DNA of 34,387 bases from a virus. Its lineage: Duplodnaviria; Heunggongvirae; Uroviricota; Caudoviricetes. Positions 3,709 through 34,387 of this stretch are shown in pieces. The position numbers and the translations under genes are program-made. Numbering within the stretch: the first letter of the stretch is position 1; every line of letters starts with the position of its first letter. The stretch lies in IMG/VR virus record IMGVR_UViG_3300045988_107065; one strand, given 5' to 3'. The notes below the pieces were generated by a model that did not search any database, was not told the origin of the DNA, and saw only the letters and a list, made by a program, of their open reading frames with translations.

Positions 3709-3711
3709 CTA

Positions 3712-4152: not shown

Positions 4153-7100
4153 CTATTTCATCTGCTCTTCAACTTTATTTAGTAACGGTGATATCGCCCA
4201 CAGGTTCTGAAAAGGTAGCATTTTACGGACCGCGTGGGTTTGCTGGCTGTCAAATTCTCCGTTAAGTACACCATTCGCAACCGTCGCGGCATCACCGCCA
4301 AGATCAAAGGTAGGACCAAGTAAAGCACCAATAGCATTACGACTCTGAAACCTTGATACCGGAGGCGCACCAAACATCGCGCCAAGACCAAACCTACCGC
4401 CGCTTATGTTCTCAACGGTATTCAGCGGCTCAGAGAGCCAGCCAAGCATTCCGCCCCGGTCGATCCCCTCTTTCACAAGGTTATTCCAGCTGTAGTCGAT
4501 ATCGCGACCGCTTAACTTCTGTTTCATCATATAGACCATTGAGCCAAGCGCAATCGTGCCAAGCGCACCAAGATAGAATGCAGCATCGCCCTGCTGGATA
4601 CCAGATACTAGCACCCTGTTATGCTGTGCGAAGATAAACGTTTTGAACTGCGTGATCATCTTCCAGCCTTCTTTACTAAAAAACAGCGGTGTATCACCTA
4701 CGCCAGGCGTTACAATCACTGAGTCTACATCTTTCAGCACTGCAGACTGGAAAATCTCTCTAGCGAAACGGTCATCCCACAGATGACTATGCCCGGTTAA
4801 CAGCCCGTCCATATCCTCTCCGTGCTTCCCGAATTGCTCCCCGATTCGACGCAGAACATCTTCATTGATGCCGACCTGTGCCATCTTCCGCATTTCACTT
4901 TTGGAGAGCGTGCCACCAGCAGAAACTTGGCGAGCCGCGTCAAGTATCCTCGACTGCACTATCATCCCGGACCATGATTTAAGTGCGCTGTTCCACTGAT
5001 TCATCAGCGTCCAGTTACCGAATTTCTGCGTCATCCAGTTCAGACCTCGCTCAGCGGCGCTTCTCCGGCTATAGGGGTCAGTAAGATCCGCTATAGCCTT
5101 TGTACGCGTAGACAGGACATAATCAAGCCCAACGGCCATTTCTCGCAAATCCCTGGTTGCAATTTTCACTGAGTCCATATTTTTAAGCATGCTTACCATT
5201 GGTCCGAGAGATTTTCTCAGGCCATGCTGCATCATCGGTCGCATCAGATCAGTTGCAGCGGAGACAGTCATTCCACCAAGCAAACGGAGGAAGTTAATAT
5301 TCCTAGCAACTCGCCCGGCACGAACAAAGAAACTGCGTGGATCTTGAGGTGCGCCGTAAGTACCAAGCAGTCGATCACGCATAGCCGTAATATCCCTAAT
5401 ATCAGCCTCCCGTTGCTTCTCAAGAACTGCACGTCGTTTAGGTGTTTTAGCCTCTTTTATTAGCCGGGTATATTCCTCACTAACCTGACGGATTTGCTCC
5501 CCCATATCTTTACGGCCAAACTGCGCAGTCAGCTCAATTTCTGGTGCCACCTGCCGGAGATAACTTTCCATGATGTAGTTAACATCTGATTCAAGAAAAT
5601 CTTCTATACGCTCATCAGGAATAAGCAGCGTTCTGCTTTTAGTGAAACCAGCCCGACCAACGAGTCTCTCTGGGATAATATCGGCTGGTACAAGCCCGGA
5701 AGGTGCGCCTATTATTTTATTCACGATCTCGTCAGCAGCGTCCTCTGCTTCCTCTCGGGATAGAGGCTCCATCTGCTTCAGTGCTCGTTCGCGGCTTGCA
5801 TTCAGCCTTGTGGTTGAATTTGCCCGTTTTTGCAGTCGGCGAAGCTCAGAACGATATTTCCGTGGATTATCCAGCAACTCCATATGGCGCTGATAGACAG
5901 GAAGCTCACTCTTTGCCTGCGCTATATCATCAAGGCGTGTTTTAAGGTCAGAGCTTTCTTTCATCATTCTTGCCTGAAGTTTTTCTGATGAAGTCTCGGC
6001 CAACTCTTTTTCTATTCTTGTAAGACGCGCCTGTGTGTCAGTCTCCTGAGATATAAGCTTATTTCGTTTATCCAGTTCTTCCATGAGTAGAATTTTTTTA
6101 CCAGACCATTTCTCCGCTTCAGCGATTTCACTAGCGAGAGCATCAGCGCGCGGTGCTGATTCCTCTGCAGTTTTTAGCAATGAATTTATCTTTTCAATTC
6201 GCTTACCTGCTTTGTCAGCACCTTTGGCACTAATCCCTTGTATCCAGTTGGCAATTCGCCCTCTGAATTCAGTGCGGTCGGAAAGTATCTTATCGAACTT
6301 ATAAATGCGGGGAAGATAACTTTTCGCCGTCACGACATCGATATCCTCAGGAAGGATCCCCAGTTCCTGCATACGGGCTTTTGTGGTCTCAAAAATGGGG
6401 CGGATTCTGGCGGCTGCTTGTGAAACCTCAGGAATATCACTCTGATCACCACGGCGCATAGCCATGCCAACAGCTTCATTGAAATCAATAAAGCTCATCC
6501 TCTTCACGCCGCGGGCGCTGACAGATTTGCTGTACTGCTGGTAAGCATCACGAGTAGCTTCCATCTGCTTATAAAGCATGGCATCGTATTGCTTAATCTT
6601 AGTCTCGACTGCCGTAAACGTAGCCAACCCCTCATCATTTTTGGCGAAGAAATAGTTATTTTCGGCAAGCTGCTGGTTAATCTGACGGGAAACAAGAGAT
6701 GGTGATTGCGCCAAGCGGCCAGCAGGAGTGACACTCAACGTTTTGTTAGCAAGTCCAAGTCCAGCGAGCTGTTCCTGATCGAGTGTGGTATTGAAAACCT
6801 GAGCTGCACCAATGCTTTGAGGAGAATCCATACCTCGCAAATGATTACCTACTGAGTTAACCACTGCCTCGCGCGCGCTAGGTCCAGCAAGTAGCTGTGC
6901 ACCAGCACCAAGGATCCCACCAACGAGAGCATCAATAACAACGTTCGATACGCTCTCCATCGGTGAGCGAGCTTCCTGAGTGGCCTGTAATGCGGCTTCT
7001 GATACTCCCCCACCAGCAGCATTCGCCAAGGCAAAACGCCCTGCCGTCTCAGCAATACTTCCTCCACGCGCTACCGCCCCTACAGGGATGAACATTGCAG

Positions 7101-7542
7101 CCACATTAACCGGGTCTATCATTCCCATTGCTAAGCTTGAAATAGTACCAGCACCACCCATTTCAGATAGATATTCTCTATCTGTTCTTTGCTTATCGAT
7201 TCGATGTTTAATTGCCATTGTTTCTTCAGGCGAACCGGAGTTGATAAACGAATCTGCAAAATCTTCATAGCCTTTAATATCTGCTGCATCGTTATCAAAT
7301 GGGTTATATCCTTCAACCCTGTCAAACTGACTGAAAGGAGCACTGGCAATAAAACTACCCAGCGTGTTATCTATACGAAATGCTGCTTGTCTAGACCTTT
7401 GAACGCGTTGATCACTGCTAAATGGGTTCACAGCAGAAAGCAAAGAAGGTGTTTCCATATAGAAATTACTGTCATCAGGTGCTGCTATTTGCTGAATATC
7501 CTCGCCAAGCAACTCTTTAGGATCCTGTTCATATATCGGCAT
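4153..7542 (-). CDS. Large internal virion/ejection protein (1129 aa) with long coiled-coil region (T7 gp16-like position)
   Basis: Size, Gly-rich N-terminus, E/K/R-rich coiled-coil segment, position last in the structural operon; start overlaps upstream stop (TAATG). Confidence 0.55.
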   Translation of the reverse strand: MPIYEQDPKELLGEDIQQIAAPDDSNFYMETPSLLSAVNPFSSDQRVQRSRQAAFRIDNTLGSFIASAPFSQFDRVEGYNPFDNDAADIKGYEDFADSFINSGSPEETMAIKHRIDKQRTDREYLSEMGGAGTISSLAMGMIDPVNVAAMFIPVGAVARGGSIAETAGRFALANAAGGGVSEAALQATQEARSPMESVSNVVIDALVGGILGAGAQLLAGPSAREAVVNSVGNHLRGMDSPQSIGAAQVFNTTLDQEQLAGLGLANKTLSVTPAGRLAQSPSLVSRQINQQLAENNYFFAKNDEGLATFTAVETKIKQYDAMLYKQMEATRDAYQQYSKSVSARGVKRMSFIDFNEAVGMAMRRGDQSDIPEVSQAAARIRPIFETTKARMQELGILPEDIDVVTAKSYLPRIYKFDKILSDRTEFRGRIANWIQGISAKGADKAGKRIEKINSLLKTAEESAPRADALASEIAEAEKWSGKKILLMEELDKRNKLISQETDTQARLTRIEKELAETSSEKLQARMMKESSDLKTRLDDIAQAKSELPVYQRHMELLDNPRKYRSELRRLQKRANSTTRLNASRERALKQMEPLSREEAEDAADEIVNKIIGAPSGLVPADIIPERLVGRAGFTKSRTLLIPDERIEDFLESDVNYIMESYLRQVAPEIELTAQFGRKDMGEQIRQVSEEYTRLIKEAKTPKRRAVLEKQREADIRDITAMRDRLLGTYGAPQDPRSFFVRAGRVARNINFLRLLGGMTVSAATDLMRPMMQHGLRKSLGPMVSMLKNMDSVKIATRDLREMAVGLDYVLSTRTKAIADLTDPYSRRSAAERGLNWMTQKFGNWTLMNQWNSALKSWSGMIVQSRILDAARQVSAGGTLSKSEMRKMAQVGINEDVLRRIGEQFGKHGEDMDGLLTGHSHLWDDRFAREIFQSAVLKDVDSVIVTPGVGDTPLFFSKEGWKMITQFKTFIFAQHNRVLVSGIQQGDAAFYLGALGTIALGSMVYMMKQKLSGRDIDYSWNNLVKEGIDRGGMLGWLSEPLNTVENISGGRFGLGAMFGAPPVSRFQSRNAIGALLGPTFDLGGDAATVANGVLNGEFDSQQTHAVRKMLPFQNLWAISPLLNKVEEQMK

Positions 7543-10289
7543 TATTTGCCCCCTGCGTATATATTGCTCGGAAGGTTATTGGCTGAACCATAACCGAATG
7601 GCTTGGTCAGATCTGGAGGAGTATATCCATCTTTATTGCTGAACTGCGGCAGCGGATTGCCTTCTCTCCGCACTCTAGCTTCATCAACACGCTGTTGCTG
7701 GAACTGAATGGTTTGCCTGTACATTGGAGATGTCAGCTGATCCGGCTTGAAACGAACAGGGAGACCATTTTCTCCAATATAATTTCTAGGTTCTATCGCT
7801 CCGTTTGCGTCAGGCTGTAAAACCATAACAGCATAACTCCTATCCCTTGCCGTAAGGCCATCAGAAACAAGTATTAAGTCCGTATCACTGCGAGGACCGC
7901 CAAAGGATTTTGATTTAAGCTCGCGTTTTTCCTGCTCCCACTGCCCCTGTATCCAGTTACCAGCACCATTATTTACTCCGTACAATGCCTCAGGTGCATA
8001 CTTCATAACCTCTGCTTTGCCATTAACCGTAGAAACTCCCCAGGTGGTTCTGATCATGGCATTGGTCATTTTCTCAGCCTGTTCTGCATCGCCGCCTGTC
8101 TGTACAAAGTTAGCATCGTAAATTGTCTGGTAATCTCGCTGATAGGCCGCATTTGATTTTCCTGGATCGGTAATATCCGGAGACCACGAACCAAAGGAAG
8201 TCAGACTGCTGGCGTTATTTTGTGCAGCAGTTGCCCTCGCCGCGACATATTTTTTGTCTCGCATGGCAGTAGAAAGCATCTGTTTCATTCGGTCATCCTG
8301 TTGGAACACCTGGCTGTAAGCCATATCAACAGCCTTATCCTCCGGCACGCCAGCGCGGGAATAATCGTAAACCTTGCCGTAAAATGCCATCGTACTTTTA
8401 TCAAGTGTTGCCGCTGCCGCCGGATTATTATCGAATAACTGACCGTAGAATTTTGCCATCGGGACAACCAGCGCAGGATCTCTTGATGTTGCTCCACTGT
8501 TAAGCATTGTTTTAACCTGAGTTGGTATCATGCCGCTTTTAGTTGTGACGGTGACCAGTGTATTGATGCTCTGCGGATCAGATATGGAAAACGAAGGCGC
8601 GATATCCTGCGCGAAATAACGGTCTACCGCTGCCTGATTGTTTTTGTCGTTCGGGTCCAGCGGGAAGTTATTTTGCATTGAAGACACGAATCTGTTTCTT
8701 CCCTGCTGAATCTCCCACTCCCTATCCATCTCTTTAAATTTGGCCTGCATTTTCTCCCAGCGTTGCTGGTTAGCTGCAAATCCAGGAGCGTTTGGATCCT
8801 GTGGACGTAAACGTTCAAGAATGTCTTGTCGTCCTTCTGGAGTGAGGTCTTTAGCGGCACCAATGACACCTCCATATTGTATCTGCGCCTGCATATCCTT
8901 CCACTTCATAGCGCCAATGCGCGGACCATTGGCCCGGATAAAATCGTCCTCAGAAGGTAACTTCTCAGGTTTCAATCCTTCATCAAGGGCTGAATATGCA
9001 TCTTTAACTACAGTGCTAAGCTGGTCCGCATACTGCTGGCGGAACTGATTTCTCAGCTCATTAGCCTGCCTCAATGCCTGTATTTGCATTTGAGGGCTCA
9101 TAGCATCAAATGCCGCATTGCCCGTATAACGCTTAGGTGAATCAAGGTTAGTTAGACCAAGGGCTGCCGAGATACCAGTTTCAAGCTGTTCGGTGCTATA
9201 AGGCATACTGCCATTTTCGTGTTTAATAATCCCAGCACATAAAGCAGCTAGTGTCTTTGGGTTAGAGATATCAAGCTGATCATTCTCCCCAACACCAAGC
9301 TCACCACACAATGCCCTAATATAAGCATCAGTATTATTACCATCACTAGCCGGAGCATAGCGATTAACAATCTCGCTAACGGTGTCATAGCCTTGACGCT
9401 GGTAAGACAACATATTTTTACCCAACGCGCGGATTCCATGCTCAGGAGTAGCAAACGTTGCAAAACGCCCATCGCTACCGATCTGACCTTCCCACGGGTT
9501 AGATTTGCTCGCTTCAATATTACCAGGGTTATTATTACGTAAACCACGAGCATCCAATGAATTACCATGTGATATTGCACGACTCACACCATCAAGATCC
9601 CCTGGCTCTCCATTAACCTGAAGAAACTCGTTGTATTTTTGAGCGATATTTCCTATCCATGCTTGCTGCCCCATTTGTTCCTTGAGCTGAGTTTTCTGCT
9701 GAACACGCCACTCATCAGGAAGCCCATGCGCATCAGCGTATTGATCAATAGATTCAAATCGCTGCTTGGCTAAATCGACAAATGCTCGGTTATCGCTATA
9801 TAGCCCCGCAGACTGAGTGACAGCCAATGCATTTCCTGACAAATACGTTTGATCTTGGAATTGCTGAAACTGCCCAACTTCATATCGACGTGCCTGATTG
9901 TAATAAGACTGCATAGACTGCTGGAGTTGAAAGGATAATTTATTCCTTTCCTCACTTTCAGGAATTGAGCCTAATAATGCCTGAGCCCTTTCCTGCATAT
10001 TTTTCATAACAGCGTCACTCAGACCAAGAGCGTTTTTACCCTGTTTAGAAATCAGCCCATTTTCAGGGTTGTTAATCTGGTCATCTGCAAATTGGTTAAA
10101 TTGCAGTAACGCCTCCTGTGCCATAGCAACATTCGCTTTCTGCCTGGCTTCACCATATGCCACCGCATACTGATCTGCGACATTCGCCAGCACCTGACCT
10201 GCCTGAGGAACATCGAAGGTCTGAAAACCACCGGTTTGCACACCACGACTTTGCACCTGGCGTCCGGATGTAGTAGGAACAACAGGCAT
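7542..10289 (-). CDS. Large internal virion protein (915 aa; T7 gp15-like position)
   Basis: Size and position; contains a conserved-looking segment NNPGNIEASKSNPWEGQIG...FATFATPEHGIRALGKN whose function I cannot assign with certainty. Confidence 0.5.
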   Translation of the reverse strand: MPVVPTTSGRQVQSRGVQTGGFQTFDVPQAGQVLANVADQYAVAYGEARQKANVAMAQEALLQFNQFADDQINNPENGLISKQGKNALGLSDAVMKNMQERAQALLGSIPESEERNKLSFQLQQSMQSYYNQARRYEVGQFQQFQDQTYLSGNALAVTQSAGLYSDNRAFVDLAKQRFESIDQYADAHGLPDEWRVQQKTQLKEQMGQQAWIGNIAQKYNEFLQVNGEPGDLDGVSRAISHGNSLDARGLRNNNPGNIEASKSNPWEGQIGSDGRFATFATPEHGIRALGKNMLSYQRQGYDTVSEIVNRYAPASDGNNTDAYIRALCGELGVGENDQLDISNPKTLAALCAGIIKHENGSMPYSTEQLETGISAALGLTNLDSPKRYTGNAAFDAMSPQMQIQALRQANELRNQFRQQYADQLSTVVKDAYSALDEGLKPEKLPSEDDFIRANGPRIGAMKWKDMQAQIQYGGVIGAAKDLTPEGRQDILERLRPQDPNAPGFAANQQRWEKMQAKFKEMDREWEIQQGRNRFVSSMQNNFPLDPNDKNNQAAVDRYFAQDIAPSFSISDPQSINTLVTVTTKSGMIPTQVKTMLNSGATSRDPALVVPMAKFYGQLFDNNPAAAATLDKSTMAFYGKVYDYSRAGVPEDKAVDMAYSQVFQQDDRMKQMLSTAMRDKKYVAARATAAQNNASSLTSFGSWSPDITDPGKSNAAYQRDYQTIYDANFVQTGGDAEQAEKMTNAMIRTTWGVSTVNGKAEVMKYAPEALYGVNNGAGNWIQGQWEQEKRELKSKSFGGPRSDTDLILVSDGLTARDRSYAVMVLQPDANGAIEPRNYIGENGLPVRFKPDQLTSPMYRQTIQFQQQRVDEARVRREGNPLPQFSNKDGYTPPDLTKPFGYGSANNLPSNIYAGGK

Positions 10290-10864
10290 CAGTAACCTCC
10301 TATTTTGAATCGGGAGTCAGAATTCATAAAACCTGAGTTAGATAGCATTGGCGTCCCACCACCAGATGTACTTCCTTTAGAGAACGGACTCCACGTCCCA
10401 CCAAACATCTGGTACGCACCGTATGCCTTCAGAGGCGCGGTGAGCAATGTTGTTGCTGCTCCCACATTCCCCTGTTTACGGGCTGAACTGGCTTCTGCTT
10501 TATAGTTGGCAGCCTGAACCTGATAACCGTAAGCCTCGCGTTGCGCGTTATTCACCGTCGTCAGCGAATCAAGAGCGCCAAACTGGGCTGTGTCGCCAAA
10601 TATATCCAGCGCGTTACCTGTAGATAAATCAGCGCCGGTAGCCCCCATTGTCGCCGCCTGTGTACCAAGCCGCTGTCGGGTCTCTCTGCGCCGTTGCTCA
10701 GCTTCAGCGTTACCTCTGTTTATTGCATCATTTGCCTGAGCTGTGGCTATATCTGCGTTCGCTTCTGCAACCTTCGAGGCATACTTTCCCTGTTGGTACT
10801 GGGTGTATGCCTGAATGCCACTCATGGCGAGCATTGCACCACCAGCAATAACCGGATCGCACAT
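10289..10864 (-). CDS. Internal virion protein (191 aa; T7 gp14-like position), Ala/Gly/Gln-rich
   Basis: Position and composition. Confidence 0.4.
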   Translation of the reverse strand: MCDPVIAGGAMLAMSGIQAYTQYQQGKYASKVAEANADIATAQANDAINRGNAEAEQRRRETRQRLGTQAATMGATGADLSTGNALDIFGDTAQFGALDSLTTVNNAQREAYGYQVQAANYKAEASSARKQGNVGAATTLLTAPLKAYGAYQMFGGTWSPFSKGSTSGGGTPMLSNSGFMNSDSRFKIGGY

Positions 10865-19914: not shown

Positions 19915-19991
19915 GTGGCATTAGCTCAGTTGGACAGAGCAACCGCCTTCTAAGCGGTTGGTCGCAGGTTCGAATCCTGCATGCCACGCCA
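19915..19991 (+). tRNA. tRNA-Arg (anticodon UCU)
   Basis: Cloverleaf folded by hand: acceptor GTGGCAT/ATGCCAC, D-arm GCTC/GAGC, anticodon stem ACCGC/GCGGT with loop CTTCTAA, T-arm GCAGG-TTCGAAT-CCTGC, discriminator G and encoded CCA; 77 nt. Confidence 0.9.
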
Positions 19992-25620: not shown

Positions 25621-25970
25621 AGTTCCTCAACCTCCCATCCACCACCGAGCTTTTTAGGTTTTGGATAAGCAACCTGAAAGACAAACGGATAGCTGTCTGC
25701 CGCAACCTTCATCTTGACTCTCGCATCGTCAGTAAAGACTGACTTACTTCCCTTAACGTCCACCATCACCAACTGCCCGTCAGCCAACATCACGGCAAAA
25801 TCTACAGTCAGGAAGCAGTTGTCAGCTAATCGCAGCTTGATACCCTCAAATCGATACCAGGCGATTTCCCCTGCACGTTTACGCAGCTCAAGGTGCTGGC
25901 AATACGCAGATTCTGTTTTGTTCATCTGGCCTGTTTTGAGTCGACCAAGAGCCTGTATCTGTTTTCTCAT
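25617..25970 (-). CDS. Small phage protein (117 aa), possible PD-(D/E)XK-fold nuclease (DUF1064-like)
   Basis: TVDFAV...VDVKG arrangement resembles a D...(D/E)-x-K nuclease core; assignment tentative. Confidence 0.4.
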   Translation of the reverse strand: MRKQIQALGRLKTGQMNKTESAYCQHLELRKRAGEIAWYRFEGIKLRLADNCFLTVDFAVMLADGQLVMVDVKGSKSVFTDDARVKMKVAADSYPFVFQVAYPKPKKLGGGWEVEEL

Positions 25971-25973
25971 GAT

Positions 25974-25988
25974 TTACCTCTGAGGTAA
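25974..25988. promoter_or_regulatory. TTACC-N5-GGTAA palindrome (site 5), overlapping the RBS of the 25617-25970 gene
   Basis: atttaccTCTGAggtaatt. Confidence 0.45.
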
Positions 25989-26035
25989 TTAAAAACCACA
26001 TAAGACACGAAATCAATAGAGTTTAGAATATTTTG

Positions 26036-26050
26036 TTACCCTACAGGTAA
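26036..26050. promoter_or_regulatory. TTACC-N5-GGTAA palindrome (site 6)
   Basis: gttaccCTACAggtaatt. Confidence 0.45.
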
Positions 26051-26087
26051 TTATCAAGGCGTAAAAAAATGCGCTATCGCGCTGGTA

Positions 26088-26888
26088 TTACTTGATAAAT
26101 CCTGCCGCCTTTCCCCGCCTGTATTCCTCCATCAGCCACTGAGCCGGTGTTATTCCCCCAAGGGTGGCGGCGTTAGGCATGCACCCGAAACTTCGCCCTG
26201 GTGGATGGTAAACGTCTCCCCCTGTGTCCGGAGGTGTACTCATGGGTTCTGGCTTTGCCTGTATGCTGATCACCGGATCGGGTATCTGCTGTCCGGAAGC
26301 CACCTTTTTCGCCCAATCATCGAGCAGCCTGCGCGCGTGTTTCTCAACCTCAATCTCGCTAAGCTGGCGCTGATACATTGCACGGCGTGTATCACATACG
26401 ACCCAGTACATAACAGGATGCCGCCACGGGAATCTTTCGGGACCACCAGGATATAAACTTTTTTCCTTGCTGTACCGGTGAAACTCCGCCATCACATCGT
26501 CAATGGTGACGCCAAGAACCATCTTGCTGTCTTTACACCACTTGATGAATTGCCCTGGCGACGGCCAGAACGGAGACTCACTGGCGCGGGCGTGGCGCAT
26601 ACCAGCAGAAACCTGTTCACGGGTTCGGATCCCCCCTTCGGCAAACGCAGCAATCCACTGCTGTTTTGCAGCAACTTCCTGCTCTGGCGTCTTCAGGTTG
26701 GTTACCACTGCCGCCGGAAACAGCTGTTTCAGCTGTTTGAAAAGGGCATCAACAAGCCTCTCTGCTGACATGTTCACCACATTGTCATTGTTGACGTACT
26801 GATGCTCATAACCTGACATGCGAGAAAGGGCTTCTCCGTCACGGTTTTGTATCGCGGTAAAAACGTTGTTCACAAGAAATCCTCCCAT
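26088..26888 (-). CDS. Replication protein P-like (helicase loader)
   Basis: Strong resemblance to lambda P core (QQWIAAFAEGGIRTREQVSAGMRHARASESPFWPSPGQFIKWCKD vs RQWVLAFRENGITTMEQVNAGMRVARRQNRPFLPSPGQFVAWCRE, lambda P recalled from memory). Confidence 0.8.
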   Translation of the reverse strand: MGGFLVNNVFTAIQNRDGEALSRMSGYEHQYVNNDNVVNMSAERLVDALFKQLKQLFPAAVVTNLKTPEQEVAAKQQWIAAFAEGGIRTREQVSAGMRHARASESPFWPSPGQFIKWCKDSKMVLGVTIDDVMAEFHRYSKEKSLYPGGPERFPWRHPVMYWVVCDTRRAMYQRQLSEIEVEKHARRLLDDWAKKVASGQQIPDPVISIQAKPEPMSTPPDTGGDVYHPPGRSFGCMPNAATLGGITPAQWLMEEYRRGKAAGFIK

Positions 26889-27685
26889 GCTTCAGGGCTG
26901 TTCCAGTGCGGAACGTTGTTATCAGGTAATGTTGATTGCTTCTGTCTGCTAATCTGCAGCCGCCTTGCCAGCTTCTGCTCCCACTGTGCCTGATGGTATG
27001 CCTTACCCTCAGCCATCCAGTAAATTCTGAACTCTGCAAGTTCCTGTGCCGTTGGCAGACTGTCCAGGTAGATCCCCTGCAATGAGCTTTTCCGAAGAAA
27101 GTCATCTGATGGCTGCCATTGTTCATGCATGACAAATTTGCCTAATTGCCCTGGCCCACCAGGAGGAACAAAGTTATTCATCACGGCGTTGTTTGCGTTG
27201 GGGTCATGATGCACAGAATCCCCGTTTTTTGTCCTGCTCTCCCTCTCTTGGTTAAATGACTGGTTATATGACTGGTTCTGGATCCCGTTTTTGGGATCAT
27301 TCAACATCCCGTTTTTGGGATCATTCAACATCCCGTTTTTGGGTATATTCCCGTTTTCGGTAACATTACCGTTTTCGGGTTCATTGCCCCCCTCCCGGTT
27401 GCCTTTAATGTTCCCGTTTTTGGTTATATTAAGAGAGAAAACCCGCACTCTTTTTGTCGCTCCCTTTCTCTCTCCGGTATCTGAAATAAGCCCCATTTTC
27501 ATGAGCGATATAAGTCCGGCCTGCACGGTTTTTTTATTCAGGCAAGTGTCTTTAACGAGGCGTTCTATGCTGGGGTAGCAGAGGTTATATTCATCGGCTC
27601 TGTCAGCCATCGAGAGCAGTATGAGCTTTAATGATGAGCTACCTGGATCTGTCTCCCAGGCCCAATCTGTTGCATGTCTGCTCAT
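26870..27685 (-). CDS. Replication initiator, lambda O-like (N-terminal HTH, C-terminal DnaT-like region) containing the origin iterons
   Basis: N-terminal HTH-type region; Asn/Gly repeat segment encoded by DNA iterons; immediately upstream of the P-like gene. Confidence 0.65.
   Translation of the reverse strand: MSRHATDWAWETDPGSSSLKLILLSMADRADEYNLCYPSIERLVKDTCLNKKTVQAGLISLMKMGLISDTGERKGATKRVRVFSLNITKNGNIKGNREGGNEPENGNVTENGNIPKNGMLNDPKNGMLNDPKNGIQNQSYNQSFNQERESRTKNGDSVHHDPNANNAVMNNFVPPGGPGQLGKFVMHEQWQPSDDFLRKSSLQGIYLDSLPTAQELAEFRIYWMAEGKAYHQAQWEQKLARRLQISRQKQSTLPDNNVPHWNSPEAWEDFL
27282..27425. repeat. Iteron array (putative origin of replication) inside the O-like gene
   Basis: Six copies of CCGTTTT(T/C)GG, including two perfect 24 bp tandem units (atcccgtttttgggatcattcaac). 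Confidence 0.65.
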
Positions 27686-27700
27686 GATTAATCTCCGCTA

Positions 27701-27901
27701 TCAGCTTGAGTGTTGTGGGGAGGAATTAATCATGATCTGCTTAATCTCTGCCCTGATGCGACGGTTTGATTCCATGGTGCACTCAACACAGTGTCCGTTG
27801 TAAACCCAGCGTTCACTGTCATGTCCGTGCTTACATGGTTTTCCGGTGTAGTAGCGTTTAAGTCCGCGCTTTGCGGCATCAATACGTGTAATGATTTCCA
27901 T
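27701..27901 (-). CDS. Small Cys/His-rich putative zinc-ribbon protein (about 67 aa)
   Basis: GKPCKHGH...GHCVEC motif; ATG at 27901 (track ORF extends upstream). Confidence 0.4.
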   Translation of the reverse strand: MEIITRIDAAKRGLKRYYTGKPCKHGHDSERWVYNGHCVECTMESNRRIRAEIKQIMINSSPQHSS

Positions 27902-27981
27902 GGTAAGCCCTGTTATTAGTATTGGGATTACGGTTATTTTGTGCTGACACAAAAAAAAGATCAACCATATTTGGTTTTTTA

Positions 27982-27996
27982 TTACCTTTGAGGTAC
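27982..27996. promoter_or_regulatory. TTACC-N5-GGTAC palindrome (site 7, one mismatch)
   Basis: attaccTTTGAggtacg. Confidence 0.35.
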
Positions 27997-28051
27997 GAAT
28001 AGATATGAAAAGACCGCCGGATGGCGGTCTACAGAGGGTTGTGGCTGGATA

Positions 28052-28282
28052 TCATGAGTAGAAGAAGTATGCCAGTTCTGCTTTTGAGCGCAGCCATTGT
28101 CTTGATTTACAGGCTTTAAAAAGCCCATCCATCAATACCTTACCTGGCATTTTGCGCTTACCTGTTAAGTGAGTCTGGATATAGTGACTCGTCGTTCCGG
28201 CTTCCTGTGCGAAGGCTTCACGCTCATCCGGAGTAAGTGCAAGCCAGTGCTTTTTGAAATCGAAATGTCCGTTATCGCTCAT
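28052..28282 (-). CDS. Cro-like HTH DNA-binding protein (76 aa)
   Basis: HTH segment EAGTTSHYIQTHLTGKRKMP resembles Cro/YdaS-type HTH; first gene of the minus-strand operon, divergent from the repressor. Confidence 0.6.
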   Translation of the reverse strand: MSDNGHFDFKKHWLALTPDEREAFAQEAGTTSHYIQTHLTGKRKMPGKVLMDGLFKACKSRQWLRSKAELAYFFYS

Positions 28283-28318
28283 AGCTATTGCCTGATATTT
28301 ATTTCAGATAATAAATAT

Positions 28319-28381
28319 TCACCTATAAGGTAACAAAAATCAAGGATAGTTACCCATGAGGTGCATTTACCTGTTGGGTAA
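28319..28381. promoter_or_regulatory. Divergent promoter/operator region with three adjacent palindromic sites (two imperfect, one perfect TTACC-N5-GGTAA)
   Basis: tcaccTATAAggtaa (28319-28333), ttaccCATGAggtgc (28350-28364), ttaccTGTTGggtaa (28367-28381) between the divergent cro-like and repressor genes. Confidence 0.55.
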
Positions 28382-28436
28382 TATTGCTTTAAATTGAATC
28401 ATCTTCTGATTCAGATATGAGGCGATTTTCCAGAAA

Positions 28437-29021
28437 ATGAAAAGTATCCAGGACGTCCGCAGGCAAAATCTCAACGACTTGATCGACCGTGAATTCAATG
28501 GTGTTCAGACGCGGATGGCTGAAAAACTTGGAACTCAGGCAAATCTGGTAAACCGCTGGGCTCTTGGCAAGAAGGTTATCGGCGACCAGGTTGCGCGAAA
28601 AATTGAAGCTGCCGCCAATAAACCCCGTAACTGGCTTGATATCGATCGCTCGCTTTCTCAGGAAGGTTTTCAGCCTGTCGGACCAAGCGACATTGGTCAA
28701 CTGGCGGCTCACAACCTGGAACGCTGGATGAGCGAAAGCCGCGACCTTTCAACGCAGGGAAAACTTCACCGCGCATCCGGCGTCGCCCAGGTGACAATCA
28801 GCCGCCTGTTAAACAATGAGGTCAGCGTTTCCATTTCCACCCTGGAGAATGTTGCATCCGCATTCGGGCGTCACGGCTATGAATTACTGATTCACCCGCA
28901 CGACCCTGCGACTATCAACTATGACCGCTCGCGCTACGCTTTGTTACCCGAAACCGAGAAAGCAAAGATCGAAAGTTACATTGAATTTGTCATCAACCAG
29001 AACGAAAAAAACAAACAATAA
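28437..29021 (+). CDS. Repressor-like protein with two tandem XRE-type HTH domains and no peptidase domain
   Basis: Two HTH-like segments (QTRMAEKLGTQANLVNRW; ASGVAQVTISRLLNNE); no Ser/Lys S24 autocleavage motifs seen. Confidence 0.65.
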   Translation: MKSIQDVRRQNLNDLIDREFNGVQTRMAEKLGTQANLVNRWALGKKVIGDQVARKIEAAANKPRNWLDIDRSLSQEGFQPVGPSDIGQLAAHNLERWMSESRDLSTQGKLHRASGVAQVTISRLLNNEVSVSISTLENVASAFGRHGYELLIHPHDPATINYDRSRYALLPETEKAKIESYIEFVINQNEKNKQ

Positions 29022-29041
29022 AATCATATTTTTCAGTAAGT

Positions 29042-29067
29042 AAGCCGCCTTCTGGCGGCTTTTTTAT
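29042..29067 (+). terminator. Rho-independent terminator after the repressor gene
   Basis: aagccgcc-ttct-ggcggctt followed by TTTT. Confidence 0.65.
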
Positions 29068-29078
29068 TGCCTGTTCGA

Positions 29079-29093
29079 TTACCTAACGGGTAA
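29079..29093. promoter_or_regulatory. TTACC-N5-GGTAA palindrome (site 9)
   Basis: gattaccTAACGggtaatt. Confidence 0.45.
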
Positions 29094-29140
29094 TTTTTTT
29101 AACTCATATCTATTGACATCAAACCATATACGCATAATTA

Positions 29141-29155
29141 TTACCTCAACGGTAA
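29141..29155. promoter_or_regulatory. TTACC-N5-GGTAA palindrome (site 10) immediately downstream of a TTGACA (29113-29118) promoter-like element
   Basis: attaccTCAACggtaac. Confidence 0.5.
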
Positions 29156-29174
29156 CAGACCGAGGTAACAAGTT

Positions 29175-29327
29175 ATGCAGTGGAAAATCATCAACGGTTG
29201 GTACTGCGTTACTGCATGCGGATTCATGAGCTGGAAGTTCCGCACCTTACAGGAAGGCATTAAATGGGCTTTCGTCAGCAAAGAAGCTCGCGATGTGGCC
29301 AACGATAACGAGATATGGGAGGGCTGA
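29175..29327 (+). CDS. Small hypothetical protein (50 aa), first ORF of the plus-strand early operon
   Basis: ATG with GAGGTAA RBS; hydrophobic/aromatic-rich; below the track cutoff. Confidence 0.4.
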   Translation: MQWKIINGWYCVTACGFMSWKFRTLQEGIKWAFVSKEARDVANDNEIWEG

Positions 29328-29329
29328 TA

Positions 29330-29629
29330 ATGAACGTTAATCAGCAGAAAAATCTTCAAAAAATCATGCTGGCATTCGACAAGGACTACCGTCTGTCAGA
29401 ACAGCTATATGACCGACAAGTTGAACTGATTGAGAGTATCCGGCTTCATCAACTGGCATCAACTTTCGACGTTGTAACAGTTAAAGGCGTTCGCCAGGAA
29501 GTACTGGAGGCCGCTAAAGACAGCCCTGAGTTCGAAGAACTAATGGATGCCTACCGGCGCGAGGCAATGGCAATTATCGCCCGCTGGGATCTGGCTGATC
29601 AGCTTGATGGGCAGAGGGACGCGGCATGA
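29330..29629 (+). CDS. Hypothetical protein (about 99 aa) upstream of the recombination genes
   Basis: ATG directly after the preceding stop (TGATAATG); track ORF starts at 29315. Confidence 0.45.
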   Translation: MNVNQQKNLQKIMLAFDKDYRLSEQLYDRQVELIESIRLHQLASTFDVVTVKGVRQEVLEAAKDSPEFEELMDAYRREAMAIIARWDLADQLDGQRDAA

Positions 29630-30447
29630 AACCGGGAATTTATTTCGACATCAGCAACGAAGACTACCACGCCGGTGACGGCGTGAGTAAGTCGCAACTG
29701 GACATGGTTGCCAAGAATCCGGCGCTTCTTAAATGGGTTCAGGCAGCACCAGAAGACGAAGAGAAAAAGTCTGCACTGGATATGGGAACCGCATTGCACT
29801 GTCTGCTTCTGGAGCCTGGAGAGTTCGACAAACGCTTCATTGTTTCACCGAAATTCGATCGTCGGACGAAACAAGGTAAAGCTGACGAAGAGGAATTTCT
29901 TCGTGATGTGGCGGATATGGGGATTACGGTACTTGATGCCGAGCAGTGGCGGAAACTGGAGCTGATGCGTGATAGCGCAATGGCTCACCCGGCGGCACGC
30001 TGGATGCTGGAAGCACCTGGTTACTGCGAAGCATCAATGTACTGGAACGATGAAGAGACGGGGGAGTTGTGCCGAATTCGTCCAGACAAATGGCTGAACG
30101 AGCACAACGTGATCGTCGACGTGAAAAAGGTTGCAGATATGGACCGTTTTGCACGCCACATCGAGGAATTCCGCTACCACGTGCAGGACGCAATGTACCG
30201 CGAAGGCGCAATGAGGGTTACTGGTCAGCCGCATGGTTTTTTCTTTCTTGCCGTGAGCGAAAGCATTGATTGTGGTCGGTATCCGGTACGCGTGTTCGAG
30301 CTGGATGCGCAGGATGTCGATGCCGGGCACGCTCTGTTCCGCCGGGATCTGAATACCTATCACGAATGCCGCATCAATGATGAATGGGGCGGTGTGGAAA
30401 TCATTAAACGCCCTGAGTGGGCACGCAAACAGGATATGTACATATGA
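29626..30447 (+). CDS. PD-(D/E)XK recombination exonuclease (RecE C-terminal/DUF3799-like)
   Basis: N-terminal FDISNEDYHAGDGVSKSQL motif, D...DVKK nuclease core; ATGA overlap with RecT-like gene downstream. Confidence 0.7.
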   Translation: MKPGIYFDISNEDYHAGDGVSKSQLDMVAKNPALLKWVQAAPEDEEKKSALDMGTALHCLLLEPGEFDKRFIVSPKFDRRTKQGKADEEEFLRDVADMGITVLDAEQWRKLELMRDSAMAHPAARWMLEAPGYCEASMYWNDEETGELCRIRPDKWLNEHNVIVDVKKVADMDRFARHIEEFRYHVQDAMYREGAMRVTGQPHGFFFLAVSESIDCGRYPVRVFELDAQDVDAGHALFRRDLNTYHECRINDEWGGVEIIKRPEWARKQDMYI

Positions 30448-31385
30448 GCAACGACATCGCAAACATCAACGCACCAGTAGACACAGCAATCGCTGGAACT
30501 GCTGCAACTATTTTCAGCCCAGACGGCTTGAACCAACTGATGAAATTCGCCGAGGTAATGGCGCAAAGCCGCGTAACGGTACCGGCGCACCTCGCCGGGA
30601 AACCAGCTGATTGCATGGCCGTGGCAATGCAGGCTGCGCAGTGGGGAATGAACCCGTTTGCCGTGGCTCAGAAAACCCATGTTGTGAACGGCACGCTAGG
30701 TTATGAAGCCCAATTAGTAAACGCAGTTATCTCAACGATGTCGCCAACAAAAGATCGCATCAACTACGAGTGGTTCGGGCCGTGGGAACGCGTGATCGGT
30801 AAGTTTGTTGAGAAAACATCCAAAAACGGCAATCCATATATCGCACCAGGCTGGACTCTAAAAGACGAAGAAGGCTGCGGTGTTCGCGTATGGGCAACCA
30901 TGAAGGGCGAGGATCAACCTCGAGTGCTTGAGTTAATGCTGTCTCAAGCACAGGTAAGAAACTCCACACTTTGGGCCAGTGATCCGAAACAACAACTCGC
31001 ATACCTTGCGACAAAACGCTGGTCTCGCCTGCACTGTCCTGACGTAATCATGGGCGTCTACACCCCAGACGAATTACAGGAAACGGCACCGCGCGTTGAG
31101 CGAGACATTACTCCGCAAACGACCACTGCTGCGGGAATGAACAGTCTGATCAACGCTAAACCAGCGAAAAAGCCTGATGAGCAAACGCGTAAATCGGACA
31201 GCCGTGATCCAGAAGAAATGCTGATGGCCTTTACCAGCGCAGCGATGAATTACAGCACTGTCTCCGAACTGGATAAGGCTTACAAATACATTGCACAAAA
31301 ACTTTCAGATGATGACGAACTGCTGGCAAAAGCCACCGACGTTTACAGCGTTCGTCGGGAAGAATTAAACGAAACATCTATGTAA
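30444..31385 (+). CDS. recT: RecT-family single-strand annealing protein
   Basis: Sequence characteristic of the RecT family; coupled to the exonuclease gene (start ATG at 30444 overlapping the upstream TGA). Confidence 0.8.
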   Translation: MSNDIANINAPVDTAIAGTAATIFSPDGLNQLMKFAEVMAQSRVTVPAHLAGKPADCMAVAMQAAQWGMNPFAVAQKTHVVNGTLGYEAQLVNAVISTMSPTKDRINYEWFGPWERVIGKFVEKTSKNGNPYIAPGWTLKDEEGCGVRVWATMKGEDQPRVLELMLSQAQVRNSTLWASDPKQQLAYLATKRWSRLHCPDVIMGVYTPDELQETAPRVERDITPQTTTAAGMNSLINAKPAKKPDEQTRKSDSRDPEEMLMAFTSAAMNYSTVSELDKAYKYIAQKLSDDDELLAKATDVYSVRREELNETSM

Positions 31386-31434
31386 CCACCACCGCGGCGC
31401 CACGCGCGCCGCACTGCAACCAAGAGAGGTATTT

Positions 31435-31683
31435 ATGAAAGGTGCATTAGGTAAGAAGGAACTCCTGGCGGTGGTTCCACTGTCATGGAGCACTATCGAC
31501 CGTATGGAGCGCGCAGGGGAATTTCCTAAACGCTGGTATATCACCGATAAACGCTGCGCATGGAACCGTGATGAAGTTGAGCGTTGGCTTGATGAACGTC
31601 AGGCAGCAAGCCCGGCAGAGTTCCAGGGTAAAAAACCTCCTGTTCAGCAACGTGTATATCGTCCCGTGAGCAACGCGGCATGA
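31435..31683 (+). CDS. AlpA-family DNA-binding protein (excisionase/transcriptional regulator type)
   Basis: Motif LSWSTIDRMERAGEFPKRWYITDKRCAWNRDEVERWL typical of the AlpA/Vis/TorI family. Confidence 0.75.
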   Translation: MKGALGKKELLAVVPLSWSTIDRMERAGEFPKRWYITDKRCAWNRDEVERWLDERQAASPAEFQGKKPPVQQRVYRPVSNAA

Positions 31684-31792
31684 GTGTGCTGCTAAGGCAC
31701 TGGAGCAAATGGTCAGGATGGTACTTATTCCTGGCCTCTGTTTCAGCATGGCTTTATCTGCTGGCATTAATTTTCAGAGAGGGTTGGATTAA

Positions 31793-32092
31793 GTGAGAAA
31801 GTTAAGCCGACTTGAAAAATATCACATGAACAAGGTTTCAATGCGCAGTCCGTCAAAGATTGTCGCCGTTACTCCTGCGGCGATAGAGATCGAAAAACGC
31901 GCGATTGAAAGAGAGAAAAAAGGGCAGTTCCGCATTGCCGCTCACCTTTGGCTTCAGTGTATGGATGTTGCTTCTGGTGATGTTGAGCGTGCAAGGATCG
32001 CGGTTCGCAGGGACCAATGTATCACAAAAGGTAACGGCCTTCGCCGTGGCGACTATAGCGGCATAGGATGTTGTGGGGTGGTTTATGACTAA
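31793..32092 (+). CDS. Hypothetical protein (start uncertain: GTG 31793, ATG 31826 or ATG 31844)
   Basis: ORF between the AlpA-like and methyltransferase genes. Confidence 0.4.
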   Translation: MRKLSRLEKYHMNKVSMRSPSKIVAVTPAAIEIEKRAIEREKKGQFRIAAHLWLQCMDVASGDVERARIAVRRDQCITKGNGLRRGDYSGIGCCGVVYD

Positions 32093-32735
32093 GAAATACA
32101 CACTAATCTATGCAGATCCACCCTGGGTATACCGGGACAAAGCCGCAGATGGTAATCGCGGTGCCGGTTTTAAATATCCGGTTATGAGTGTGCTGGATAT
32201 CTGCCGCCTTCCTGTGTGGGATTTGGCCGATGAAAACTGTCTGTTGGCCATGTGGTGGGTGCCAACACAACCACTCGAAGCACTAAAAGTTGTTGAGGCC
32301 TGGGGATTCCGTCTGATGACCATGAAGGGATTCACGTGGATAAAATGTGGTAGTCGACAACCAGATAAACTGGTTATGGGTATGGGTCACATGACTCGCG
32401 CCAATAGTGAAGATTGCCTGTTTGCAGTAAAGGGAAAACTACCTACGCGCATTAATGCAGGGATCGTTCAGTCATTTACCGCACCGCGGCTTGAGCATTC
32501 AAGAAAACCAGATATCGTTCGTGAAAAACTTGTGCAATTGTTAGGCGATGTTTCTCGCATTGAACTGTTCGCCCGCCAGTCGTCTCATGGTTTCGATGTT
32601 TGGGGTAATCAGTGCGAAGACCCGGCAGTGCAACTACACCCTGGATACGCGTTGGATATTGCCAGATTAACAAATGCATTCAGCAATGCTCCGCTGTCAC
32701 CAACAGACAACCAGGGGCGGGAGCGTGCAGCATGA
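32085..32735 (+). CDS. MT-A70 family N6-adenine DNA methyltransferase (orphan, no cognate endonuclease in window)
   Basis: Catalytic DPPW motif (LIYADPPWVY); ATG at 32085. Confidence 0.85.
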   Translation: MTKKYTLIYADPPWVYRDKAADGNRGAGFKYPVMSVLDICRLPVWDLADENCLLAMWWVPTQPLEALKVVEAWGFRLMTMKGFTWIKCGSRQPDKLVMGMGHMTRANSEDCLFAVKGKLPTRINAGIVQSFTAPRLEHSRKPDIVREKLVQLLGDVSRIELFARQSSHGFDVWGNQCEDPAVQLHPGYALDIARLTNAFSNAPLSPTDNQGRERAA

Positions 32736-32926
32736 ACAGGGCATCACCATCAGATTTAAGGAAATGCCTTGAAACTGCAAACATGCTTGCACACAGCGGG
32801 ATCAGGTTTGTTCCAATTCCCGCTGTCACTGATGCTGAATTTGCAACACTGTCAGCAATATTCACAGATAAAATTGAATCACTGGCAGCAGAAGCCGAGA
32901 TGGAAGAAAATCAGCAGAATAATTAA
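32732..32926 (+). CDS. Small hypothetical protein (64 aa)
   Basis: ATG overlapping the methyltransferase stop (ATGA) with GGGAG upstream. Confidence 0.45.
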   Translation: MNRASPSDLRKCLETANMLAHSGIRFVPIPAVTDAEFATLSAIFTDKIESLAAEAEMEENQQNN

Positions 32927-32929
32927 ACG

Positions 32930-34180
32930 TTATTCCCCCGCCATCCATTTCTCAAACTTCGACGGGGAGAACGGAATCAGATCCGTATGCTCCCCGTCAA
33001 TCCAGGAATCAATCATATCGGCCCACTGCTGCAACATGTAGGCGCGCTGTCTGGCGTATTCCGCTTTGTTATATACGGCGCGCACACCTTTCTGCTCATG
33101 TGCCAGAGCCTTTTCAATCCAGTCTGAAGGATAACCAGCCTCATGCAATAACGTACTGGCTGTACGGCGCATATCGTGTACGGTGAAATCCTGAATATGC
33201 TCACCATCTTCATTTATTATTTTCACCGTTCTGTCGATCAGAGAGTTCAGCGCGGCATTAGATAATGGCTTCCGGAAATTGTAACGACCAGGAACCAGAT
33301 ATTCACTTCCACCAGCGCACATCTGCAACCCGACCAATATATCCTGAGCCTGTTTAGGCAGGTAAATAACATGCGCCCGGCTTCCCTTCATGCGGTCTGA
33401 AGGAATTGTCCATGTCCATTTTTTAAAATCTATTTCATCCCACGTTGCATTGGTGAATTCGCCCTTACGAACCATAGTGATAAGCACCAGTTTTAAAGCC
33501 ATTTTCATAGTGCCCATAGCACCAATGGCATCCAACGTGCGGAAGAACAGGCCAATTTCTTCTGGTGTCAGTGTTCGCTCTCGTGGTTTAAATATGGCGA
33601 TAGACGAAGGCTTAATGTCAGCCGCAGGATTAAACAAACCATGACCACGGTCATTGGCGTGACGGTATACGCTGCTGATGATCTCCCTGGCCTGCACTGC
33701 TGTTGCCCGGCCACCGCGTTCGACAATCCGGTCACACAAATCACGAACCATCGATGTGGTAATTTCAGCCATCATTTTGTTGCCAAGAACCGGAAGTATG
33801 TCACGGTCGATCACTGCCTGCTTCATTGCGCGGGTACTTTCAGCCAGGATGACGTGTTTCATATAACTGTCGGTATGTACCGCAAACGTTTCGGCACCAC
33901 GAATCTTTTTGATACCGTCACGTTTAGCCGCAGCCGGTGACTGGCCTGCTTTAAGCAGCTTCTTTGCAGCAATCAGTTCTTCCCGCGCTTCTGCCAGGCT
34001 GATACCGTCACGCCCATACTGCCCGATTACCAGTGTTTCGCGGCGACCGTTGATACGGTAGTCATAACGAAATGAGACCGTGCCTGACGTAAGCACAGCT
34101 ACATACAGCCCGTCACGATCGGAGACCTTGTACAGTTTGTCCTGCGGCTTGAGGTTTTTTAATTTTGTATCGGTAAGCAC
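32930..34180 (-). CDS. int: Tyrosine integrase, P4-type (N-terminal arm-binding domain plus catalytic domain)
   Basis: N-terminal MLTDTKLKNLKP...GLYVAV...FRYDYR arm-binding motif; C-terminal HDMRRT...VRAVYNKAEY with catalytic Tyr. Confidence 0.9.
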   Translation of the reverse strand: MLTDTKLKNLKPQDKLYKVSDRDGLYVAVLTSGTVSFRYDYRINGRRETLVIGQYGRDGISLAEAREELIAAKKLLKAGQSPAAAKRDGIKKIRGAETFAVHTDSYMKHVILAESTRAMKQAVIDRDILPVLGNKMMAEITTSMVRDLCDRIVERGGRATAVQAREIISSVYRHANDRGHGLFNPAADIKPSSIAIFKPRERTLTPEEIGLFFRTLDAIGAMGTMKMALKLVLITMVRKGEFTNATWDEIDFKKWTWTIPSDRMKGSRAHVIYLPKQAQDILVGLQMCAGGSEYLVPGRYNFRKPLSNAALNSLIDRTVKIINEDGEHIQDFTVHDMRRTASTLLHEAGYPSDWIEKALAHEQKGVRAVYNKAEYARQRAYMLQQWADMIDSWIDGEHTDLIPFSPSKFEKWMAGE

Positions 34181-34222
34181 AATTCACCCGTATAGAAACC
34201 ATTTTCATGACGGTATGAGAGT

Positions 34223-34237
34223 ATACCTTTAAGGTAA
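34223..34237. promoter_or_regulatory. ATACC-N5-GGTAA palindrome (site 11, one mismatch) upstream of the integrase gene
   Basis: atacctTTAAggtaat. Confidence 0.4.
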
Positions 34238-34298
34238 TACCGTCACCTGTACCGCCGAAAAATATGGTGTAGAGTGAATAGAAATGAATACATAAAAA

Positions 34299-34326
34299 CA
34301 AAAACCCTCTGCAAAAACAGAGGGTT
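34299..34326 (-). terminator. Rho-independent terminator (minus strand; weaker on plus strand)
   Basis: ccctctg-caaaaa-cagaggg; on the minus strand followed by TTTTTGTTTTT. Confidence 0.6.
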
Positions 34327-34387
34327 GAGTTGGCATCTGAGTAGGAATGATTTGCTATGAGTTAGCTGTTAATCATTCCCACTCAAT

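Follow-up and report, generated by a model that had tools for sequence, protein, structure and literature searches.

The DNA analysed here (the window, 34,387 nt) ends on its right in a dense array of small sequence features. The integrase gene, int, starts at 34180 on the minus strand, and the stretch under study is thus the 207 nt from upstream of int to the window end (34181-34387). The int product has the domain structure of a heterobivalent tyrosine integrase: Arm-DNA-bind_3 (PF13356), Phage_int_M (PF22022) and Phage_integrase (PF00589) were all recognized above their cut-offs. On the other strand, at 31435-31683, lies a gene for a small AlpA-family protein, which scored above the Pfam gathering score and is a candidate excision directionality factor by family membership. 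Between int and the window end are found inverted arm-type sites around a palindrome, an intrinsic terminator with repeats on both of its sides, and finally a 17-bp core that coincides with the end of the host gene guaA (Table 1).

Table 1. Features of the int-proximal end of the window and associated genes
Feature	Position	Strand	Remarks
AlpA-family small helix-turn-helix protein	31435..31683	+	Pfam PF05930, E = 3.1e-5
int	32930..34180	-	heterobivalent tyrosine integrase with arm-binding, central and catalytic domains; GTG start at 34180
GTGACGGTAT sites within int	34002-34011 and 33912-33921	-	exact copies; an inverted one at 33659-33668
int ribosome-binding site GGGTGA and GTG start	34178..34189	-	start of int
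Inverted arm-type site ATGACGGTAT	34207..34216	+	one mismatch to the 10-mer
Operator-like palindrome ATTACCTTAAAGGTATA (palindrome site 11)	34222..34238	-	overlaps a -10-like TATACT at 34220-34225
Arm-type integrase-binding site GTGACGGTAT (predicted)	34237..34246	-	epsilon15 homologue annotated as 'integrase' protein_bind
Degenerate arm-type site	34249..34258	-	TCGGCGGTAC on the sense strand; TGACGGTAT in Klebsiella relatives
Second, direct anti-core copy	34274..34288	-	sense strand: TTCATTTCTATTCAC; between the terminator and int
Phage-borne intrinsic terminator (predicted)	34292..34326	-	stem AACCCTCTG/CAGAGGGTT, then T tract; guaA-to-int direction
Anti-core	34338..34352	-	matches the inverted core in 14/15 positions; sense strand: AATCATTCCTACTCA
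Core/anti-core hairpin loop	34354..34366	-	inner palindrome GCTA-N5-TAGC; helix 2, 88% paired
att core	34371..34387	-	ATTGAGTGGGAATGATT on the guaA/int-sense strand; guaA codons I-E-W-E, stop and TT

The att core and the phage-host junction

The window closes with 17 nt whose reverse complement is ATTGAGTGGGAATGATT. Position 34387 is where the core has its outer edge, and the distance from the core to the int start is 190 bp (34181-34370). Duplication of this core was demonstrated in the sister prophage of MS 198-1, which is 100% identical to the window over 33800-34387 and mosaic elsewhere, and in which the match places the end of guaA 15 nt within the window. At the int-side junction of the lysogen the sequence reads ...ACT ATTGAGTGGGAATGATT AACAGCTAAC..., and at the far junction of the MS 198-1 prophage it reads ...GTAAATA ATTGAGTGGGAATGATT TGACCCTGCACT..., followed by the native guaA terminator. 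The empty site of K-12, in which the 17-mer is present only once, reads ...ACC ATTGAGTGGGAATGATT TGACCCTGCACT..., again with the native terminator behind it. Only the 17-mer is thus common to all three sequences, with nothing shared to either side of it, which identifies the 17-mer as the att core that is duplicated by integration; its two copies at the ends of the MS 198-1 prophage (919-935 and 41781-41797 of locus L003) are identical, and they supply the direct repeat that an earlier, sequence-only reading of the stretch had proposed to look for at the opposite prophage end. In the window itself, no second copy of the core was found except for the anti-core, because the window stops within a tailspike-like gene about 3.9 kb before the far junction. 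The core restores the guaA reading frame, so that guaA stays intact.

The 17-bp core is also the only sequence common to phage and host, and phage-host identity stops at the window end. In eight free phage genomes (ZX5, phiV10, epsilon15, SPN1S, PAT1, Tyrion, BUCT554 and BUCT711), the sequence beyond the point corresponding to the window end is the other att arm, which leads toward the Rz lysis gene; by alignment of these genomes, the other arm of the E. coli phages (...GTAAATA followed by the core) is the same as the far junction of MS 198-1. A megablast search with 33800-34387 gave matches in 547 complete E. coli genomes, and every match listed overlies integrase and guaA. Of the 5426 complete E. 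coli genomes, 569 (about 10%) have the stretch adjoining guaA and 4571 (84%) have an intact, empty attB. With these proportions of occupied and empty sites, the locus should be useful as a typing marker for Uetakevirus prophages.

The core has been defined experimentally in a close relative. In phage vB_EcoP_ZX5, which is 97.5% identical to the window over 33600-34387, attB, attL and attR were amplified and Sanger-sequenced, giving the core attgagtgggaatgatt, located 190 bp 5' of int and corresponding to the guaA 3' end (PMC9782041); the same core is stated there to be proven for phiV10 and epsilon15. ZX5, phiV10 and epsilon15 (the latter two under GenBank DQ126339 and AY150271) share with the window an identical 17-bp core, the 190-bp distance to int and the target at the guaA 3' end, at DNA identities over 33600-34387 of 97.5-97.6% for ZX5 and phiV10 and 84% for epsilon15.

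Taken together, 34181-34387 is almost certainly one part of an attachment site, comprising its int-proximal arm and its crossover core, through which a Uetakevirus (epsilon15/phiV10-type) prophage is inserted at the guaA 3' end of E. coli, and no evidence was found that contradicts this assignment. The sequence-only reading had placed the phage-host junction, or else the core or arm sites of recombination, probably within this stretch or directly past it, and all three are present there; alignment to bacterial genomes, the check that it proposed, located attB and the junction at guaA. It had also named the outcome that would speak against it, namely uninterrupted phage DNA with the att site elsewhere. 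Instead, the stretch adjoins guaA in the 569 genomes mentioned above, and the free phages continue into the other att arm. A tRNA or tmRNA gene, which it had named as a frequent target, is not involved, since the target is the 3' end of a protein gene: the flank is guaA, and ARAGORN recognized a single tRNA in the whole window, a tRNA-Arg(TCT) of the phage at 19915-19991.

The crossover region is probably the 7-8 bp GAGTGGG(A) in the centre of the core, where strand exchange would take place. Read by eye, the attP sequence AATAATT-GAGTGGG-AATGATT forms an imperfect inverted repeat (6/7), and its flanks AATAATT and AATGATT would suit core-type sites around a 7-bp overlap.

Arm-type sites and the operator-like palindrome

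Exact copies of the 10-mer GTGACGGTAT/ATACCGTCAC number four in the 34-kb window and are confined to 33659-34246; when one mismatch is allowed, nine matches are found in the window versus 1.27 expected. The copy at 34237 is unchanged in 17 relatives, and one further copy lies in the other arm of the relatives, beyond the window. In the homologous stretch of the epsilon15 GenBank record, the GTGACGGTAT sites are annotated as integrase sites, together with a rho-independent terminator, two "RNase III" hairpins and IHF sites, the last of which are predictions.

An integrase search, with one genome per species, gave 47 relatives at 25-91% identity, and 30 of these, which belong to the Gamma-, Beta- and Alphaproteobacteria, have the 3' end of guaA at a distance of 192-360 nt upstream of int. 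In these 30 loci from three proteobacterial classes, the interval from guaA to int contains clusters of the motif GACGGTA in both orientations. The number of copies there is three to seven in most loci that do not belong to the closest enteric group, and one to three in the close enteric relatives, which have two more inside int. Almost all Enterobacterales loci preserve the DNA sequence of the int-internal sites (+171 and +261), which carry the integrase-site label in epsilon15 as well; the inverted GACGGTA at the position of the inverted arm-type site upstream of int is conserved among relatives ranging from the alpha- to the gammaproteobacteria. Such a phylogenetic footprint speaks for the 'integrase' labels of the epsilon15 record. 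The N-terminal arm-binding domain of the integrase would contact the GTGACGGTAT repeats (two inverted ones upstream of int, two in the int coding sequence and one in the other arm), and its core-binding and catalytic domains would act at the core.

A perfect 9-nt inverted repeat, TGACGGTAT/ATACCGTCA at 34208-34216 and 34237-34245, lies on either side of the palindrome and had escaped the sequence-only reading. The palindrome itself, which that reading had placed at 34223-34237, is real and not expected by chance: TACCTTTAAGGTA at 34224-34236 has 5-nt arms and a 3-nt centre, and TACC-N5-GGTA occurs at 12 sites in the window versus 0.21 expected, a number that none of 100 shuffles reached. The 12-site family has the extended consensus (A/T)TTACC-N5-GGTAAT. 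Family sites checked against the ORF list (around 25975-29154) are intergenic and near the repressor gene; the product of 28437-29021, a 194-aa helix-turn-helix protein, matches the SPC32H repressor (PDB 5D50, E = 4e-42). In the epsilon15 record, seven ATTACC-N5-GGTAAT sites are labelled as repressor-binding.

On the sense strand the int-side copy reads ATTACC-TTAAA-GGTATA, with one half-site perfect and the other (TATACC versus ATTACC) off in two of six positions. The -10-like TATACT that it overlaps reads TATAAT in epsilon15. A promoter scan recognized no sigma-70 promoter upstream of int, and by eye a weak int promoter candidate can be read, with a 15-nt spacer and a -35 hexamer matching in 4/6 positions. 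The palindrome, an ATTACC-N5-GGTA sequence between the arm sites, is likely to be the twelfth operator at which the phage repressor would act, placed over a weak promoter of int.

The palindrome at 34224-34236 might instead be no more than the centre of an RNA or DNA hairpin that the inverted pair of arm-type sites would form, or might result incidentally from the GGTAT/ATACC ends of these sites. One half-site departs from the operator consensus, the sense strand of the region does fold (z = -2.96), and the epsilon15 annotators listed their seven repressor sites without this one and called 26874-26912 an RNase III hairpin. However, TACC-N5-GGTA is kept with variable N5 in 17/17 Uetakevirus-type relatives, that is, the half-sites are conserved and the spacer is not; the palindrome and the outer 9-nt repeat are not concentric; and the palindrome is missing from the non-Uetakevirus relatives that retain the arm sites, which fits a phage-specific regulator and not integrase architecture. 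We therefore regard this origin as unlikely and retain the operator as the preferred reading.

The terminator and the core/anti-core repeat

The strong minus-strand terminator seen by the sequence-only reading at 34299-34326 was recovered by a terminator scan as a hairpin at 34326-34303 (stem 34303-34311/34318-34326) with 10 pairs (5 G-C), a loop of 4 and the tail TTTGTTTTTA, and it likewise exceeds chance. Alone it folds at about -15.8 kcal/mol, and it is annotated in the phiV10 and epsilon15 records. The native guaA terminator of K-12 has the identical stem, AACCCTCTG/CAGAGGGTT, which raises the question of whether it is simply the host's own terminator, with the true junction lying between it and int. 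This alternative is rejected as extremely improbable. Host and lysogen diverge immediately past the 17-mer, 46 nt before the terminator; the loops and the spacing of the phage and K-12 terminators differ; the whole terminator stretch is present in free phage genomes but in only 569/5426 E. coli genomes; and the native guaA terminator is intact at the far junction. The phage terminator is absent from the empty K-12 site, which carries its own, and from the 4571 E. coli genomes with an intact attB.

In 23/31 related loci, a hairpin with a T run behind it was found 37-47 nt past the guaA stop. Within the enteric group the changes in the terminator are G-U only, and outside this group the stems are unrelated (GGCCACC..GGTGGCC, AGCCCCTA..TAGGGGCT and AACCCCGGC..GCCGGGGTT). 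The occurrence of unrelated stems at the same distance from guaA argues that the terminator structure is under selection. Integration shifts the native guaA terminator by about 41 kb, and the phage brings its own, 46 nt past the stop codon. Since the native terminator is carried to the far junction, we infer that the phage copy must end the guaBA transcripts in the lysogen, where it would also keep them out of int; in the free circular phage, the terminator follows the Rz gene and would end the Rz/lysis transcript.

The 9-bp inverted repeat of the sequence-only reading also exceeds chance, but its length had been understated. The repeat extends to 15-nt arms, TGAGTAGGAATGATT at 34338-34352 and AATCATTCCCACTCA at 34371-34385, which lie 18 nt apart and are complementary in 14/15 positions, a value that none of 1000 dinucleotide shuffles of 34181-34387 gave. 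The right arm is the core itself, and it contains the guaA stop codon, which had been overlooked. Terminator and repeat, formerly treated as separate landmarks, are both parts of the att arm. A recognisable anti-core exists in 16/17 aligned relatives and is absent at the Scandinavium sp. locus; the match between anti-core and core is better in the window (14/15) than in epsilon15. In most enteric relatives the consensus TCATWTCTATTCA is found on both sides of the terminator. On the sense RNA the anti-core pairs with the core, with a G-U pair in the window, and the 98-nt stretch comprising hairpin and terminator folds at -40 kcal/mol (z = -8.0).

The core and anti-core would form a 15-16 bp RNA hairpin or serve as a protein-binding repeat. 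According to the former possibility, which we consider rather unlikely, the hairpin is an RNase III substrate that encloses the guaA stop and modulates mRNA stability or processing; it would stand 3'-terminally in the guaA mRNA of the lysogen and in the lysis mRNA of the phage. The fold of the sense strand comprises a 15-bp stem and, inside it, a 4-bp stem, and 91% of cells are paired across the 17 relatives. Three columns are mostly G-U, and these pair only on the sense RNA, giving A/C mismatches on the other strand or in DNA. In addition, epsilon15 26753-26789, which covers the loop and the anti-core side, is labelled as an RNase III site. Covariation analysis of the 17 relatives, with shuffle and slide controls, however, showed high pairing and no compensatory change, and the shuffle controls were not exceeded; compensatory change is in fact not possible, since guaA and recombination hold the core arm constant, which makes the analysis uninformative. 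In 8/17 sequences, column 11:42 does not pair, and the repeat is absent in one close relative (Scandinavium sp.) and in all distant relatives. The T residues that give the G-U pairs are also present in the second direct copy, which cannot pair likewise with the core, and an Rfam search of 33900-34387 gave only sub-threshold noise, with no family matched.

The other possibility, that the anti-core is one of two direct DNA repeats of TCATWTCTATTCA around the terminator that bind a lineage-specific protein of the intasome, is put forward tentatively, and with the same reserve we would name an AlpA-type excision factor as the most plausible protein, or otherwise the core-binding domain of the integrase, the complementarity to the core being secondary. 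The direct copies at 34338-34352 and 34274-34288 lie 64 nt apart on either side of the terminator. Of 26 related loci in which a hairpin was detected, about 18 have on its two sides a lineage-specific repeat other than TCATWTCTATTCA (9-14 nt, with one mismatch at most), according to an ad hoc search with no null model; examples are GATAACGATTG in Pantoea, GTCTACAGG in Tolumonas and CTATCG in betaproteobacteria. The window also contains a gene of the AlpA family, and in lambda attP the Xis sites sit between the core and the arm sites, with which the position of the repeat agrees. On the other hand, the 14/15 match to the core is far beyond chance, and a site for an excision factor alone would leave this match unexplained.

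Relation to other attachment modules

The Uetakevirus phages have the terminator, the GTGACGGTAT sites and the hairpins as in the window and differ from it there by point substitutions only, whereas the prophage is mosaic elsewhere. The attP of lambda, in turn, consists of a short central crossover core between two arms that both carry arm-type sites for an arm-binding domain, and its excision depends on an accessory factor. The window resembles lambda in having an arm-binding domain, repeated predicted arm-type sites (on both arms when the other arm of its relatives is included), a short central core and a candidate excision factor, and it is unlike lambda in its target at the 3' end of a protein gene, in the terminator that lies inside an arm and in the arm-type sites that reach into the int coding sequence. 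The related arm-binding N-terminal domain PF13356 of the window integrase is shared with the P4-type integrases (P4 at leuX, CP4-57 at ssrA), and a near-identical integrase in the phiV10 record is assigned to the INT_P4 family. As in P4-type elements, int is the immediate neighbour of the att core, and the element rebuilds the 3' end of its target gene. The targets of P4-type elements are tRNA or tmRNA genes, however, whereas that of the window is guaA, with no RNA gene at or near its end.

The GIsul2 island also targets the guaA 3' end, with crossover within GAGTGGGA (PMC9376610), and this crossover sequence is the centre of the core in the window. GIsul2 has an alpA gene beside a P4-type int. 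This situation is different from that of the window in that GIsul2 is a resistance island and not a phage, and its att sites are described as 19 bp, of which only the central 8 bp are shared.

In short, the right boundary of the prophage can be placed to the base at 34387 and its insertion locus at the guaA 3' end, and each small feature of the stretch is accounted for within one published att/int module. The att site has already been described for near-identical phages, so that the finding is correct but ordinary and adds little new biology. A wider interpretation, which we consider improbable, is that the guaA-targeting integrase lineage, from alpha- to gammaproteobacteria, has a selected layout (core, repeat, terminator at about 45 nt, repeat and arm sites) that rewrites the guaA 3' UTR, and that in Uetakevirus the first repeat has become an anti-core that locks the guaA stop in a 15-16 bp RNA stem. 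If this were true, lysogeny would alter the processing or stability of guaA mRNA and hence the supply of guanine nucleotides, and would thus represent a cryptic form of lysogenic conversion.

Contig ends and comparison with the MS 198-1 prophage

Apart from one differing base, the opening sequence of the window, ACACTCTTTCCCTACACGACACTCTTCCGATCT (positions 1-33), is that of the Illumina TruSeq universal adapter/read-1 primer. This end of the contig is an artefact of sequencing and not phage DNA; homology of the window to the sister prophage of E. coli MS 198-1 is recognized from position 29 onward. At the other end, the window stops precisely at the outermost base of the 17-bp att core, 34387, and it is here that the sequences of attL (guaA side) and attP (Rz side) part. 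We infer that either a branch point in the assembly graph, from a culture with spontaneous induction, or trimming at the att repeats would explain why the contig ends at this base.

Relative to the MS 198-1 prophage, the window is a mosaic, as seen over 1244-25800. Positions 25818-34387 are 99% identical to the MS 198-1 locus and the other matching blocks 91-98% identical; about 3250-10380 and several segments of the early region have no match in that prophage. The window also lacks roughly 3.9 kb that the MS 198-1 prophage has at its tailspike/lysis end. At the far junction of the prophage in MS 198-1, an IS200C transposase gene (41993-42451 of that locus) lies between yfgI and the native guaA terminator, about 150 nt past the latter.

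Repeated motifs and other genes of the window

The window contains 12 TACC-N5-GGTA palindromes (0.21 expected), and three of the 12, at 28368, 29080 and 29142, flank the repressor gene (28437-29021). The consensus of the family, ATTACC-N5-GGTAAT, agrees with the repressor-binding sites of the epsilon15 annotation. The phage-encoded tRNA-Arg has no relation to the attachment site. The 82-aa AlpA-family protein is likely to be the excision directionality factor of the prophage.

Positions of motifs and genes in the window
Feature	Position	Strand	Remark
GTGACGGTAT arm-type motif	33912-33921		within int coding sequence
GTGACGGTAT arm-type motif	34002-34011		within int coding sequence
TACC-N5-GGTA sites	873, 1253, 2305, 19579, 22724, 25975, 26037, 27983, 28368, 29080, 29142, 34224		span 873-34236
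tRNA-Arg	19915-19991	+	anticodon TCT; phage-encoded
AlpA-family protein	31435-31683	+	helix-turn-helix; 82 aa

Both of the intragenic arm-type motifs code for R-D-G-I, and such motifs are found at +171 and +261 of int in nearly all of the Enterobacterales relatives found (protein identity down to about 60%). More distant relatives have additional copies of the motif upstream of int instead.

guaA occupancy and the terminator in the att arm

Among 5426 complete E. coli genomes, the attB site in guaA is intact in 4571 and split in 855. The Uetakevirus-type int-side arm exists in 569 of the 5426, and thus about 290 E. coli genomes harbor another insertion at guaA.

The phage-borne terminator (34303-34326) and the native guaA terminator of K-12 (4910-4933 of the empty-site locus) have a 9-bp stem, AACCCTCTG/CAGAGGGTT, in common; the two differ in loop and spacing. 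The common stem may go back to host DNA that the att arm captured long ago, or it may be what remains in the host of an arm once left there. When the interval from the guaA stop to the int start was scanned in 31 loci of this integrase lineage, 23 of them showed a hairpin with a T run after it, 37-47 nt past the stop codon; the stems of these hairpins are of unrelated sequence in loci that are not from the enteric group. The hairpin is often flanked on both sides by direct repeats of 9-14 nt that are specific to the lineage. Judging from these sequences, the layout of repeats and hairpin, of which we know of no earlier description, appears to be conserved in this interval.
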